A stretch of DNA of 64,000 bases, counting the filler, from Reclinomonas americana ATCC 50394 (taxonomy: Eukaryota): assembly GCA_048213135.1 (NCBI GenBank). It is 14 parts of 14 records of this genome, joined end to end, with 100 filler letters (N's around TTAATTAATTAA, not from the genome) between each part and the next. Parts side by side here need not be neighbours in the genome. Positions count along the whole stretch, not along the records: positions 8,133 to 15,442 come from AFZH01017674.1; positions 15,543 to 20,519 come from AFZH01017675.1; positions 20,620 to 27,025 come from AFZH01017676.1; positions 27,126 to 38,484 come from AFZH01017677.1; 10 more parts are not named here. The stretch is one strand, 5' to 3'. A program made the position numbers and the translations under genes. How positions within the stretch are numbered: the stretch's first letter is position 1; each line of letters begins with the position of its first letter. The notes below the pieces were generated by a model. The model worked only from the letters and a program-made list of their open reading frames with translations, was not told the DNA's origin and did no database searches. This document shows, in pieces, positions 8,200 to 33,006 of this stretch.

Positions 8200-11100
8200 C
8201 TGCTCACCAGGAGCACATGGAACGCACAGCGATGGAAGGCGTTGTCGAGGTACAGTGATTGTGTGTAATTGCAAGATGAGCATGTCTCTTACTGATCTCT
8301 CTCTCGCTCTCTCTCTTGGCATGATTGGACAGCAACGTACGAGGAGGCGGCGAGTCGACTCGTCTCTCGTGGACCACAGTGAGAACTTGCCTTCGCGTGA
8401 CTCAGTTGAGATATCGGCCCGCAAACGATCTCTGGAGATGAACTCCGATGAGGCGCGCGTCTCACTTTGCCTCTCGCTCGTGCATCGCAGTTGACACCTA
8501 ATATTTTCTTCATTCTCTGCAGGTGGATGCATCCAACAATGACGAGCTTGCGCCGCCAAAGAAGAAGAAGGTGTGAATTCTCTGTCGCTGACACTGTTGT
8601 GCTTGTTCATCGATCTGCATTTGGGCTCTTGTGTGTCAATGACGCATGTTGTGAATTCACAGCTCGGCAATACTCGAGCTGCGAAAACCCCAGAGGAGTT
8701 GAGCGCAGACGAGAAGCTGCTGCTGAATAAGCTGCTTGTTGCGTGTGCATGCTCTCTCTGACATCGTTGCAACCCCTTCAGCCTCCTCCTTCTTTCCGTC
8801 AATGCACTCACCATTCTTCTCCTGTCACTCGCAGCGATGCAATCGGAAGAGAGTTCTGGTGAAGGCGTTTGGCCTGATGGCACCCGTTGTTCATGGGTCC
8901 GCAGTCATCCACCATCAGAGTGCTCTCTTTGAGCTGGCCTGTGACGACTGCAGAATTCCATCGTCGGAGCGGGGTTGCTCGTCGTCTGTAGTCCAGTGTG
9001 CATTCGGCAAGAAGCTTGGCGACACTGCCAATAATTCACGCCACTCAATGCCCAAATCAGTTGAGGGTGTACTCCAGAGCGTGAGCAACTACATCGAGGT
9101 GAGCATGCGTGAGTGCATATGACGACCGTGGTATGTAAACCAACATGCAGATGATTGCACAATGCAGGTGAGCCAACTCAGTGGCTCGGCTCTGGTGGAT
9201 GCTGTTGAGAGACCGCTGATTGTGGTGGATGAGCGCGGGCATTCGGAGGTTCGTTGTATCTGCATGATACGTTGTGTCTGCTGCGATCGTGTCGACTGAC
9301 TCAGCTTGTTCGAGATAGGAATCATGGGAGAGACTGTCTCCAGCAAACAGGGCCCTGAAAGACCATCGACTGCCGTTTGTCAAGCAGTTCATGGATTCGA
9401 TGCGCGAGTGCGATGGTCTTGTAACTTCTCTGCTTCGAGACAACCACCTCTCTGAGGCCGAGATTGCGCGCGCCGTCACGTGGTGCCATGCGAAAGGTCT
9501 GCATTTGCATGCGGCTATTGGTGTTGCACTGATGTTGACCAGCATTACGCAGAATCTGGCGATGTGAAAATGGTGGTGAAGAAAGACGACGATGACATCA
9601 AGCATGAAGAAGATAACACCAAGGTGAGCATCAACAGGTCATGAATGACAGAGACTGGGTGTGTCTTCGTGGACTCGGCCACCCGCTGATGCGGCTTTCA
9701 CAGGAGGATGCAGGAAGTGATGATGGTGAAGAAACAAAGACGAGCAAGGTACGGCGTTGTCGCCGCTTGTGTATGGCTTGGGAGGCAGAAGTGTTGTCTC
9801 ATGGGGTGCGTATTTGCAGCGCGTCAATTGTGGTCGCCTTGTATTCAATGCGGATTTGAGCAAAGACGAGCGAACCGTACTGCACAGACTGCTTGTTGCG
9901 TGTTTATGAGCTGCAATACCCCAGCATGGCAGACTAGTTGCACCTTGCCATGCGCTTGCCTGTCATAACACTGGTGCGTGCGTGGATGTGTGCGAACAGC
10001 GGTGCAACAAGAGAAAGATACTGGTGACGGCATTCGGTATCATGGCACCATTTCTGAAACGAAACACAGTCTGGCATTATCAGCGAGTTCTCGTTGAACT
10101 CGCCTGCAACGAGTGTGGTATTCCTTCATCGGGAGCTTGCAGTCCGTCATCCGCAGTCACGGATTCATTCGGCAAGAGTCTTGGTGGTGTCGGCAACAAG
10201 TCGCGCACCAACACGCCCAAATCAGTTGAGGGAGTGCTCCAAAGCATGAGCAAGTTCATCGAGGTGAGCATCGGTCTGTGCTCTCCGTCTCTGGTGCGAC
10301 TGGAAAGTGAGCCAACGTCGGTGCTTGTGATCTCTTGCAGAAGAGTGAACTCCGCGGCGATGCTCTGGCAGATGCCATTGAGAGACCACTGATTGTGGTT
10401 GATGAACGGGGCCATTCGGAGGTGTGCAAACTTTCCTTTGTGTGCTCTCTACATTTCCCGGTTTGTGATCGTGCTTCAGGAGTCATGGAAGATGATGGAG
10501 AGGAAGTGGAACAACAACGACCGTCTCCTGCCGCTTATCGCCCAAGCCGCACAGGCGCTGCGAGAGTGCTCTGGCTTGCAAGCGTCGCTGATTCGAGACG
10601 GCTGTCTCTCCGATGCGGAGACCGCACGGGCCGTCGAGTGGTGCAGTGAGAGAGGTTTGATGGCATCGGGCGCGTTTTGCTGTGCAACTTGTCAGGACTG
10701 ACGAACGAGATGCAGCTCTGCTGGAGGCCAAGGTGCTGAAGAAAGAAGAGAGGAAGGAGGAGGAGGAGGAGGGGGAAGAGGAAATGGAGGACGAATCGAG
10801 GGTCGACGGGGAAGAAGATGAGGACGAAGAAGGTGAAAGGAGCAAGGTATGACCGTGAATGATGGGGTGGGTGCATACAGGCATCGTCTCATGGAGCGCA
10901 TTCACAGCGACAAGAGAGTGATTCTCACACAATTAGCAAGGATGAGCAGCTGATGCTGGCGAGGCTGCTTGTTGCGTGTGTATGCAGTTTTGTCCTCCTT
11001 CGGTAGTTGTCTGGCTACTTGAGTGTTCATTGCGCCACCCATGTGATTCATGCGAGAGCAGTGCTGCAATAAGACGAAGATACTGGTGATGGCGTTTGGC

Positions 11101-30100: not shown

Positions 30101-33006
30101 CAATAAGAGGAAGGTACTGGCGATGGCGTTTGGCATCATGGCACCGATGGTTACGGGATCCACAATCTGCCATCATCAGCGCATGCTTGTTGACTTGGCA
30201 AGCAAGGAGTGTGGCATCCCTTCATCGAATGCAGGCTGCCTGTCGACGGCAGTTGTGAGCTCATTCGGCAAGAGTCTTGCCAAGCTCTGCCAACAGGTAC
30301 GCGACAAGACGCCCAGGTCTGTTGAGGGAGTGCTCCACATGATGGGCGACTTTATCGAGGTGAGCAGCGTCCATTTCGCGCGACTGAATCAATATCATCG
30401 CTAATGTATGTGTGGCATTATGTAGAAGAGTGAACTGCGTGGCGCTGCCCTGACGGATGCCATTGAGAGACCCCTGGTTGTGGTGGATGAACGTGGCTAT
30501 TCGGAGGTGTGGCTGCCCTGCACTCAGTGTGCGTTGTTCATATTGGCTGCCATATTCTCATGCTCCGTGTTCTGGAATTTGGATGGCAGGAGTCGTCACG
30601 CTTGCCAAGAGTGCGGCACAGCCGGCAGACACCCCATCAACCATTCGTCACGCAGGTAATGCAAGCTCTCCACAACTGCCCTGGCCTGCTGTCCACTCTG
30701 CTTCGAGACGGCTGTTTTTCGAAGACAGAGATCACAAGTGCCGCCGAGTGGTGCGATGAACGAGGTTGGGCTGCGTGACTAGCATAGCTGCATAGTGTGC
30801 GCATATGCTCAACAACGACTGAACAGCCCTGAGGGAGATGGAGATGGCGAAGAAAGAGGAGAAGAGGGAGGAAGAGCAGGAGGACGAGGACGATGGCAAG
30901 GTACGCCCGTCGCTCGTTTCCGTTAGATGCGAGGCAGGTGGGTGTCCTAATTGTGTGTGGTTTGCGCTTCACAGCGCCGCAAGAGCGGTCCTGGGAAGCT
31001 GAGCGTCAACGAGCAACTGATGCTGGCGAGGCTATTTGTTACGTGTTGCTATTATCTCTGCATGTCACCGACAGTGCTGACGCTCACATCTGCTCACTGC
31101 GCCTCGGAGCAGGGTTGCAACAAGAAGAGGATGCTGGTGAAGGCATTCGGTTTGATGGCACCCGTGGTGATGCCGTCCACAGTCATGCATCATCAGCGCG
31201 TTCTCCTCCAACTTGCCTGTGGCGAATGCGGAATACCGTTGGGGGGACGGGGCTGCCCTACGGCCGCAGTCATTTCTGCATTCGTCAAGCGTCTTGCCGG
31301 TAGTGCCAGCCACGTACGTAGCGAGATGCCCAAGTCGGTGGAGGGTGTGCTCGAGAGTGTGAGCATTATCATTGAGGTGAGTGTGTCGGTGTGTTGTTTC
31401 AGTATCCTTCCGTTTGTTATGTGCGTGGTACCTGACTCGACTTTGACGTGGATGTCGCCATCAGAAGAGTGGTATTCGGGGATCTGCGCTGGTGGATGCC
31501 GTCGAGAAGCCACTGATTGTGATTGACGACCGTGGCCACTCTGAGGCGCGTGTGTATTGCTAATGCGCGTCATTGAAAGCTGGCTCACGAGTACTGCTGT
31601 GGCTTGGATGACAGGAATCAGCAAAGTCGCAGAAGGGAGGCACTCCTAATGCTCTTGTGCCACACGTCATGCAGGCCATGCAGGCTCTCCACGGCTGTCC
31701 AGACCTGCTGGCCACTCTGCTTCGGGACGGCTGCCTTTCGCAGGCGGAGGTTGCACGTGCTGCCGAATGGTGCAGTAAAAGAGGTTTGGCTGCTTGTGCC
31801 GTGGTTTCATTGCTTACGTGTGCTGACAAGCAAGTGACCAGTCGTCAGGGAGATGGAGATGATGGAGAAAGAGGAGGAGAGGGAGGTTGAGCAGGAACAT
31901 GATGACGACAGCGAGAATGTGGACGATGACGCGAAGAGAAAGAAGGTACGCCCGACGCTGCATTCAATGTGATGTATGAGGTACGTCTCAATACTGTGTG
32001 GCCTGTGTTTCACAGCGCCGCAAGATTGATCCTGCGAAGTTGAGCATCAACGAGCAATTGATGCTTGCGAAACTGCTTGTTGCGTGTTTTTTGTATCGCC
32101 GACATTGCTGTCATCGTCAGCTCCTCACTCACTCCCACCCATCCGTCACACCCGTGAGCAGGGCGGAAACAAGAAGAGGGTTCTGGTGAAGGCATTCGGT
32201 CTCATGGCACCTGTGGTGATGGGATCCACAGTCGTCCGTCATCAGCGTGTTCTCTTCCAACTTGCCTGTGACGACTGCGGAATACCATCGAAGGGACCGG
32301 GCTGTCCATCATCCGCAGTCATGGCTGCATTTGGCAAGAGTCTTGCCAGCAGTGCCAGCACGGCACGCGGCACGACGCCCAAGTCAGTGGAGGGTGTGCT
32401 CGAGAGCGTGAGCGATTTCATCGAGGTGAGTGTCAGTTCGTTATTTCCGTGTCACATCTGCTTGTGGTGTGTCTGGCAACTGACCTGCCTTGCGTCGTGT
32501 GCATGTGGAATCATCAGAAGAGCGGACTTCGAGGGGCTGCGCTGGTGGATGCTGTCGAGAGACCACTGATTGTGATTGACGAGCGTGGGCACTCTGAGGC
32601 ATGTGGACCCTGGTTGTGTATCCTGTCGTGATTTGACGATGCTGACTTACTCTGCTTTTGTCGGATTGTAGGAATGTGCCGAGCACATTCGGAAGGGAAG
32701 CACTCCAAATGCTCTTCTGCCTTTTGTCAAACAGGCCGTGCATCTGCTCCGCAACTGCCCTGGCCTGCTGGCCACTCTGCTTCGAGACGGTTGTCTTTCG
32801 AAAGCGGAGATTGCGCGTGCTGGTGAGTGCTCCCAAATGCAACAATGTGGGAGCACCTGCTGTTGTTGGATGTTGTGCGAGCATCAGCACTGACGAGCAG
32901 AAATACAGTGGTGGGCGACGAGAAGCCGGTGAAAATGGAGGTGGTGAAGAAAGAGGAGGAGGAGGATGAGGATGAGGAGGAGGAGGAGGAGGAGGAATAC
33001 ATGTAG
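27193..33006 (+). CDS. Modular repeat protein paralog 4 (5' end in gap): five modules A-E
   Basis: Core exons at 27819-28082, 29022-29285, 30096-30359, 31113-31376 and 32162-32425; TAG at 33004-33006. Confidence 0.8.

Follow-up and report, generated by a model that had tools for sequence, protein, structure and literature searches.

The C2H2 zinc finger is a unit of approximately 28 residues with the pattern C-x2-4-C ... H-x3-5-H, and short TGEKP-like linkers allow successive fingers to track one groove of the DNA. TALE repeats are 33-35 residues long, near-identical and contiguous; they form one superhelix and contain a two-residue variable site. Zinc-finger and TALE arrays both undergo copy-number flux. 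UBF combines multiple HMG boxes with an acidic tail. We analysed a stretch of 64,000 nucleotides (nt) from Reclinomonas americana ATCC 50394 (assembly GCA_048213135.1), referred to here as the window, which contains 19 related modules in four tandem units. The original prediction for this locus was an unrecognised family of nuclear proteins with a hypervariable helix in every module, forming a candidate programmable DNA-binding array. We found that amino acid replacement is concentrated in one short segment of an otherwise conserved module. Our favoured explanation, to which we assign a probability of about 0.5, is that the units are four tandem paralogues of an orphan, probably nuclear, bead-on-a-string family with a diversifying ligand-contact surface.

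The locus resembles C2H2 clusters such as KRAB-ZNF and PRDM9 in having tandem genes, modules with a fixed scaffold, replacement at a few helix positions and a probable nuclear location. However, the module is approximately 175-200 residues long and is encoded by five exons, as opposed to 28 residues for a finger, and the linkers are acidic and 24-59 residues long rather than short and TGEKP-like. The module types are diverged (45-63 % identity) and not homogenised, their order is fixed, and the repeat number is constant save for one missing module A. The C2H2 unit itself was absent: the cores contained only H26-H27 ... C36-x2-C39, with C36 replaced by Ser in two modules, and zf-C2H2 was not matched at E <= 10. 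As in TALE proteins, there is one variable site per repeat and the scaffold is otherwise kept, but here the domains are large and separate on flexible linkers and the variable part comprises 8-12 residues instead of two. The likeness to zinc-finger and TALE arrays drawn in the original prediction thus did not hold when the defining features of these arrays were tested.

Multi-BEN and multi-box proteins such as UBF share with the locus several mildly basic helical boxes, acidic tracts and an acidic C-terminal tail, but the exon pieces and read-through frames searched here matched neither BEN nor HMG in Pfam (E <= 10), and we know of no hypervariable helix in the BEN or HMG families. Restriction factors and leucine-rich repeat (LRR) receptors likewise combine duplication with a conserved fold in which excess replacement is confined to a small number of surface patches. 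Their folds are unrelated to the present one, their ligands are known and they usually have a single recognition domain; if the ligand here were a protein, they would nevertheless provide the best functional analogy. Systems in which modular proteins are duplicated and a recognition patch diversifies are already known, whereas the domain itself is new to the databases searched.

Exon structure of the repeated modules

Positions refer to the whole window rather than to individual records; its DNA is eukaryotic, with approximately 54 % G+C. The 19 modules in four genes were found where they had been predicted, between 8663, the first base of the exon preceding the first core, and 33006, the end of the stop codon after the last module. 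Modules of types A to E follow one another in the order A-B-C-D-E, except that unit 2 is without A. From first to last core the four units span 8835-13391 (A-E), 16489-19862 (B-E), 21519-26115 (A-E) and 27819-32425 (A-E); individual modules are designated by type and unit.

Each module consists of five short exons: an exon ending in ...LL, the 264-nt core exon, an 81-nt exon (exon 2), an exon of approximately 175 nt (exon 3) and a linker exon. The module period is approximately 1.0-1.2 kb of DNA with approximately 175 conserved residues, and introns in the region are 58-92 nt long. An open-exon search together with a motif scan identified the core exon as AG-264 nt-GT in a single register in 18 of 19 modules, and the E1 core (13128-13391) contains the same 264 nt followed by a GC donor. 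The invariant core exon of the original prediction was thus recovered in every module, and all of the scaffold motifs quoted with it were present. The 19 core translations aligned without gaps over 88 columns, 14 of them invariant. Identity to the A3 core was 78-86 % within type A and 45-63 % for the other types.

Downstream of the core, all 19 modules contained an 81-nt exon 2 (14 GT and five GC donors) and a third exon with an AG acceptor. A GGT phase-1 donor was present at the same codon in each case, followed by an in-phase linker exon rich in Glu, Asp and Lys that ended in K|GT, again in 19 of 19 modules. All 57 conserved exons were open with their splice sites intact. The linkers contained 24-59 residues and had net charges from -3 to -37 (mean -9.8). 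The short exon ending in ...LL, 54-75 nt long and upstream of the core, was detected automatically in 11 of the 19 modules and was read by hand in gene 3. The GC donors of exon 2 belong to E1-E4 (after 13554, 20035, 26288 and 32598) and D4 (after 31545), and that of the E1 core follows 13391. Conservation of the GC exon-2 donor in all four E-type modules may reflect splicing habits of the lineage.

The module-E linker runs into a poly-Glu tail with a TAG stop in E1, E3 and E4, while the E2 tail meets a gap. Because of this conserved stop after module E, four multi-module genes are the best reading of the locus. The modules of each unit are presumably spliced into one messenger RNA (mRNA), since splice sites and phases are conserved across paralogues and types and there is no room for promoters between modules.

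Replacement in the variable segment

Change was compared between modules of the same type (27 pairs). The ratio of nonsynonymous to synonymous substitution rates (dN/dS, Nei-Gojobori) was 1.56 in core codons 60-72 and 0.37 in the other 102 codons of the core and exon 2. Minimal within-type counts gave 63 nonsynonymous (N) and 12 synonymous (S) changes in the segment, compared with 151 N and 118 S over the remaining codons (Fisher odds ratio 4.1, p = 6.6e-6). Among 13-codon windows along the core and exon 2, codons 60-72 formed the maximum (permutation p = 1e-4), and the nucleotides of the segment were less alike than the rest of the exon in 24 of the 27 pairs, the exceptions being A1/A3, C2/C4 and E1/E4. 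The claim that change is concentrated in one short segment was therefore borne out, and all 16 of the variable strings quoted for it were correct; the segments of C4 and E4 read LAKLCQQVRD and LASSASTARG, respectively. Silent change was not raised in the segment (0.92 per codon versus 1.16 elsewhere), indicating that it is not a mutational hot spot. The nonsynonymous excess expected in the original prediction was present, marginally so against neutrality (p = 0.043), and was unaccompanied by a synonymous one; this localised excess with omega > 1 is the pattern sought in a positively selected recognition surface. The scaffold is under purifying selection, and the modules are real and intact.

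Two details of the original prediction had to be modified. The positions named as variable (+2, +5, +6 and +9) were indeed varied, but columns 64, 65 and 71 (+3, +4 and +10) varied as much as +9. Similarly, codons 60-72 formed the strongest variable segment but not the only one, as there were lesser patches at core 20-25 (26 N and 11 S) and at the beginning of exon 3 (columns 1-17: 49 N and 15 S, with insertions and deletions; residues 9-14 were noted in particular). Unlike the exon-3 loop, the core segment had a constant length without insertions or deletions in all 19 copies. Residues kept in and around it included F57, the near-invariant K59, L61, the invariant R69, P73, S75 and V76, and the segment also contained residues specific to a module type, for example the VRD carried by each of the four C modules.

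Introns were 88-89 % alike between copies and exons 88 %; because introns are as alike as exons, the copies are young. The nearest paralogue differed from module to module, which suggests recombination among the genes. Two candidate sources of the variation were rejected. Exchange of a cassette between D and E modules had been considered for the SASTARGTT string common to D2 and E4, but D and E cores are 79-84 % alike anyway and the segment exceeds this by only 7 points. A base-specific mutator was also discarded, as the segment showed more transversions but no single-base bias.

Predicted fold, relatives and competing explanations

An AlphaFold2 model was generated from the A3 core, the in-frame retained intron and exon 2, with the exons of other modules as alignment rows. 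Helices were predicted at residues 4-15, 21-26, 28-38, 50-71 and 76-92, with predicted local distance difference test (pLDDT) values of 72-78 over residues 51-70. In this low-confidence model the variable residues 60-71 make up the C-terminal half of helix 50-71. On a helical wheel, positions 60, 63, 66, 67, 70 and 71 lie opposite the side occupied by the conserved residues V53, F57, L61 and A68. From these predictions we infer that segment 60-71 is helical and exposed. Exon 3 folded alone gave three helices with pLDDT values of 80-89. The mean net charge of the modules was +4.4, with core exons ranging from +2 to +11. An SV40-like PPKKKKK sequence was present at 21206-21256, and each of the four genes had K runs in its 5′ region. 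Nuclear proteins more typically carry basic runs resembling nuclear localisation signals (NLS) together with long acidic tracts, and because of the basic K/R clusters seen here the proteins are probably nuclear.

The family had been described as unrecognised, and our searches agree. No Pfam family was matched at E <= 10 by the 19 cores or by four read-through open reading frames (ORFs), and at this threshold BEN and HMG were matched neither by these nor by the 19 exon-3 pieces; the queries were exon pieces and read-through ORFs, with border-spanning domains covered in pieces only. Three of the 19 exon-3 pieces gave HTH_24 (E = 0.07-0.09), which at 12.9 bits was below the cut-off of 21.9. No other hint emerged for the BEN-like or homeodomain-like fold, or for the reading of DNA or RNA, that the original prediction had suggested. 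Profiles of PDB sequences gave nothing for the core and repeat-driven or weak rows only for exon 3. A HMMER profile of the 19 cores gave a single match among 1.84e9 protein representatives (E = 1.1e-4), a repetitive 970-residue bacterial protein that we rejected as spurious. None of 279, 21 and 16 pattern matches in metagenome, viral and prokaryote contigs, respectively, was confirmed, and a word-based search for longer proteins found no relative. The best core score in the ESM Atlas was 0.80, which is in the noise range, and exon 3 had no usable match there; in fold searches every match lay within the stated noise for helical models. Three motif strings of the family had no match in a full-text search of the literature. 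Two MAFFT alignments in which exon fragments were misplaced were left out. The lack of a homologue is weaker evidence than it appears, because conserved neighbouring genes reach only 47-56 % identity and the lineage is barely represented. The domain is an orphan, new to the databases searched, within the limit set by a poorly sampled lineage.

According to our favoured explanation, each gene would encode a long, highly charged protein of five modules (four in one gene) in the fixed order A-B-C-D-E. Every module would fold as a mildly basic, mainly helical domain of approximately 175-200 residues belonging to an orphan family; a flexible acidic linker of 24-59 residues would follow each domain, and the protein would end in a poly-Glu tail. 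The ligand-contact surface would be formed by the C-terminal half of the helix on its outward side (core 60-71), possibly with contributions from core 20-25 and from the loop that opens exon 3, and the gene duplicates would diversify this surface by amino acid replacement. Given the size and divergence of the domains and the long acidic linkers that tether them, a bead-on-a-string arrangement appears most likely, in which each bead would bind its own partner or site instead of adjacent subsites of one DNA duplex. The pattern of replacement suggests a binding role for segment 60-71, and nucleic acid, protein and chromatin are all candidate ligands. Among the 152 residues of the hot columns, S, T, K, A, N and G are abundant, E occurs once, and W and Y are absent. 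This composition leans toward a nucleic-acid or phosphate-rich ligand over a hydrophobic protein interface, although it is not decisive.

Several observations weigh against this explanation. The 27 pairs are not independent of one another, and A1 and A3 have identical segments except at column 72 yet differ at 11 positions elsewhere. Relative to the neutral site ratio of approximately 3:1, the excess in the segment was marginal (12 S of 75 changes, p = 0.043), and the lower value for the eight hottest columns (60, 63-67, 70 and 71; p = 0.004) is post hoc. The mean pLDDT of the A3 model was 54.5, with values below 40 in exon 2. As to the predicted location of the variable residues on one face of a helix, a helix at 50-71 was indeed obtained (pLDDT 72-78), but the variability periodicity, which peaked at 90-110 degrees, was not significant (p = 0.06-0.2), and B-type segments contain up to three glycines. 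Initial exons and start codons were not found in the readable 5′ regions of genes 1-4, and a signal peptide could therefore be present. Finally, open GT-AG paths between modules number 1,278-106,710 per junction by chance, so that the single-mRNA reading is carried by the conserved splice sites and phases only. Since chance paths number in the thousands, the existence of an open path was dropped as evidence for one mRNA.

Some of these points would fit a segment that is simply a weakly constrained, exposed stretch of a structural or scaffolding protein, changing in a near-neutral manner without a recognition role. A dN/dS of 1.56 is marginally above 1 (p = 0.043), the S-, T-, A- and G-rich hot columns resemble a low-complexity surface or loop, other loops also vary, the periodicity is not significant, and in copies this young the signal is carried by few substitutions. 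Drift of this kind is harder to reconcile with the kept residues F57, K59, L61, R69 and P73-S75-V76 that flank and interleave the segment, with its constant length in 19 copies, with type-specific residues such as the VRD of the four C modules, and with an N:S ratio of 63:12, which exceeds the neutral ~3:1; we consider it somewhat unlikely. The replacement excess on a predicted helix is shared by the model of the original prediction, in which the variable helix of each module would recognise a DNA or RNA subsite as part of a programmable, sequence-specific array. Basic core exons (+2 to +11), NLS-like runs and small or polar hot columns, which include K, N, H and Q, contain one Glu in 152 residues and no aromatics and are flanked by Arg69 and Lys59, are consistent with such an array. 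The sub-threshold HTH_24 hint in three of the 19 exon-3 pieces would be as well, but it lies in the conserved exon 3, outside the variable helix, and no DNA-binding family or fold was matched in the searches described above. Acidic linkers of 24-59 residues would repel DNA and could not hold the modules in register with a groove. Moreover, modules of approximately 175 residues that are 45-63 % identical between types, occur in a fixed A-E order and have lost only one A differ from zinc-finger and TALE arrays with their copy-number flux. Arg69 is at the edge of the variable face on the helical wheel, not at its centre, and up to three Gly residues in the B segments also argue against a reading helix. 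We therefore doubt that the proteins form such an array. That they represent a new class of modular sequence-specific nucleic-acid binders, with a helix retuned between paralogues in each ~175-residue domain and five domains combining dispersed sites, is in our view unlikely.

A tandem, lineage-restricted family with localised diversifying change could also encode secreted or surface effectors, or antigens, of a parasite or symbiont in which host pressure acts on the variable patches. The lineage is absent from protein collections, and a signal peptide could sit in an N-terminus beyond the readable part. However, the readable parts showed neither a signal peptide nor a membrane segment, nothing marks the organism as a parasite, and NLS-like runs combined with long acidic tracts are found more typically in nuclear proteins, which makes this explanation quite improbable. 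It can hardly be credited that the units represent pseudogenes in decay or coding sequence of a repeated mobile element, despite their high tandem copy number, the contig breaks at microsatellites and the absence of relatives in databases: open frames and splice sites are preserved in each of the 57 conserved exons, the scaffold dN/dS is 0.37, Pfam gave no transposase, integrase or reverse-transcriptase match, and no terminal repeats were noted.

If the bead-on-a-string explanation is correct, a domain without a detectable relative has expanded in number inside proteins as well as through gene duplication. Exchange of residues in a compact, fixed-length stretch on a kept scaffold would then be the signature of a recognition surface in an evolutionary chase or in functional diversification, and the ligand would reveal what a poorly sampled lineage must recognise in variants, such as repeats, mobile elements, viruses or partner proteins. 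A nucleic-acid ligand would make the domain a new engineerable binding scaffold, and the sequence-specific class considered above would, if real, be the third or fourth natural "programmable" scaffold beside zinc fingers, TALEs and PUF/PPR repeats. If the variation is neutral, this is merely a lineage-specific gene family.

Gene layout and neighbouring genes

All four genes are on the plus strand. Gene 1 (A1-B1-C1-D1-E1) occupies 8559-13951, with a K-run exon at 8559, the exon preceding core A1 at 8663-8737 and the stop codon at 13949-13951 after the poly-Glu tail; its 5′ end extends toward the gap at 8033-8132. Its cores are located at 8835-9098 (A1; variable segment 9012-9050), 10000-10263 (B1; 10177-10215), 11062-11325 (C1; 11239-11277), 12068-12331 (D1; 12245-12283) and, with the GC donor mentioned above, 13128-13391 (E1; 13305-13343).

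Gene 2 (B2-C2-D2-E2) extends from 15642 to 20519, with 5′ exons at 15642, 15832, 15957 and 16190 and the E2 poly-Glu tail still open at the gap that begins at 20520. Because the 5′ exons join directly to B2, the lack of module A is not a gap artefact. Cores B2, C2, D2 and E2 are at 16489-16752, 17544-17807, 18555-18818 and 19599-19862, with variable segments at 16666-16704, 17721-17759, 18732-18770 and 19776-19814, respectively.

Every junction of gene 3 (A3-B3-C3-D3-E3; 20700-26748) was read by hand. Its 5′ exons are at 20700-20801, 20885-20932, 21016-21141 and 21206-21256, and its stop codon is at 26746-26748. Core A3 (21519-21782; variable segment 21696-21734) is followed by exon 2 at 21852-21932 and by exon 3 from 22013. 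Cores B3 and C3 are at 22709-22972 (22886-22924) and 23797-24060 (23974-24012). For D3, the core (24814-25077; variable segment 24991-25029) precedes exon 2 at 25166-25246, exon 3 from 25309 and the linker exon at 25537-25640. Core E3 is at 25852-26115 (26029-26067).

Gene 4 (A4-B4-C4-D4-E4) runs from 27194 to 33006, with its 5′ end at the gap at 27026-27125 and its stop codon at 33004-33006. The cores are at 27819-28082 (A4), 29022-29285 (B4), 30096-30359 (C4), 31113-31376 (D4) and 32162-32425 (E4); the corresponding variable segments are at 27996-28034, 29199-29237, 30273-30311, 31290-31328 and 32339-32377.

Sequence past the stop codon of module E is conserved between units (13952-14040, 26749-26835 and 33007-33100), and an ATG-led open stretch begins 16 nt past the stop in unit 3 only. 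We read this conserved sequence as a 3′ untranslated region rather than as the first exon of the next gene.

The window contains 13 gaps, each consisting of 44 N, TTAATTAATTAA and another 44 N; most are located at (CT)n, (GAG)n or (TTC)n microsatellites, and examples are those at 8033-8132, 15443-15542, 20520-20619 and 27026-27125. Gene 2 meets such a gap at its 3′ end, and genes 1, 3 and 4 do so at their 5′ ends. A large plus-strand gene at 42887-52748, which encodes a SPRY domain (Pfam, E = 7e-10) and a HECT-like stretch just below the Pfam cut-off (23.1 versus 23.9 bits), spans four gaps. Because this gene continues on the same strand across gaps, we took the window as a single scaffold and treated the four units as true neighbours in a tandem cluster of paralogous genes.

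Just downstream of gene 4, a gene for a YeeE/YedE-type membrane protein (PF04143 in relatives) is present on the minus strand at 34691-35605, with a best identity of 47 %. Exons of a formate-tetrahydrofolate ligase gene are located at 590-1072 and 4143-4592, also on the minus strand, and reach a best identity of 56 % to metagenome and bacterial proteins. A plus-strand ORF at 54943-56337 contains approximately ten tandem copies of a ~38-residue unit (...DVKTEIKKxVDQTGEVDYVDEDGKDKPAPPKQP...); its Pfam rows, RRM_3 and SSSPR-51, are probably repeat-driven, as no stretch passes alone. Finally, a minus-strand ORF at 6190-7584 encodes a homeodomain (PF00046, E = 1.2e-12) at residues 385-441, after a long low-complexity sequence rich in Gln, Pro and Ala, which identifies the organism as a homeobox-bearing eukaryote.

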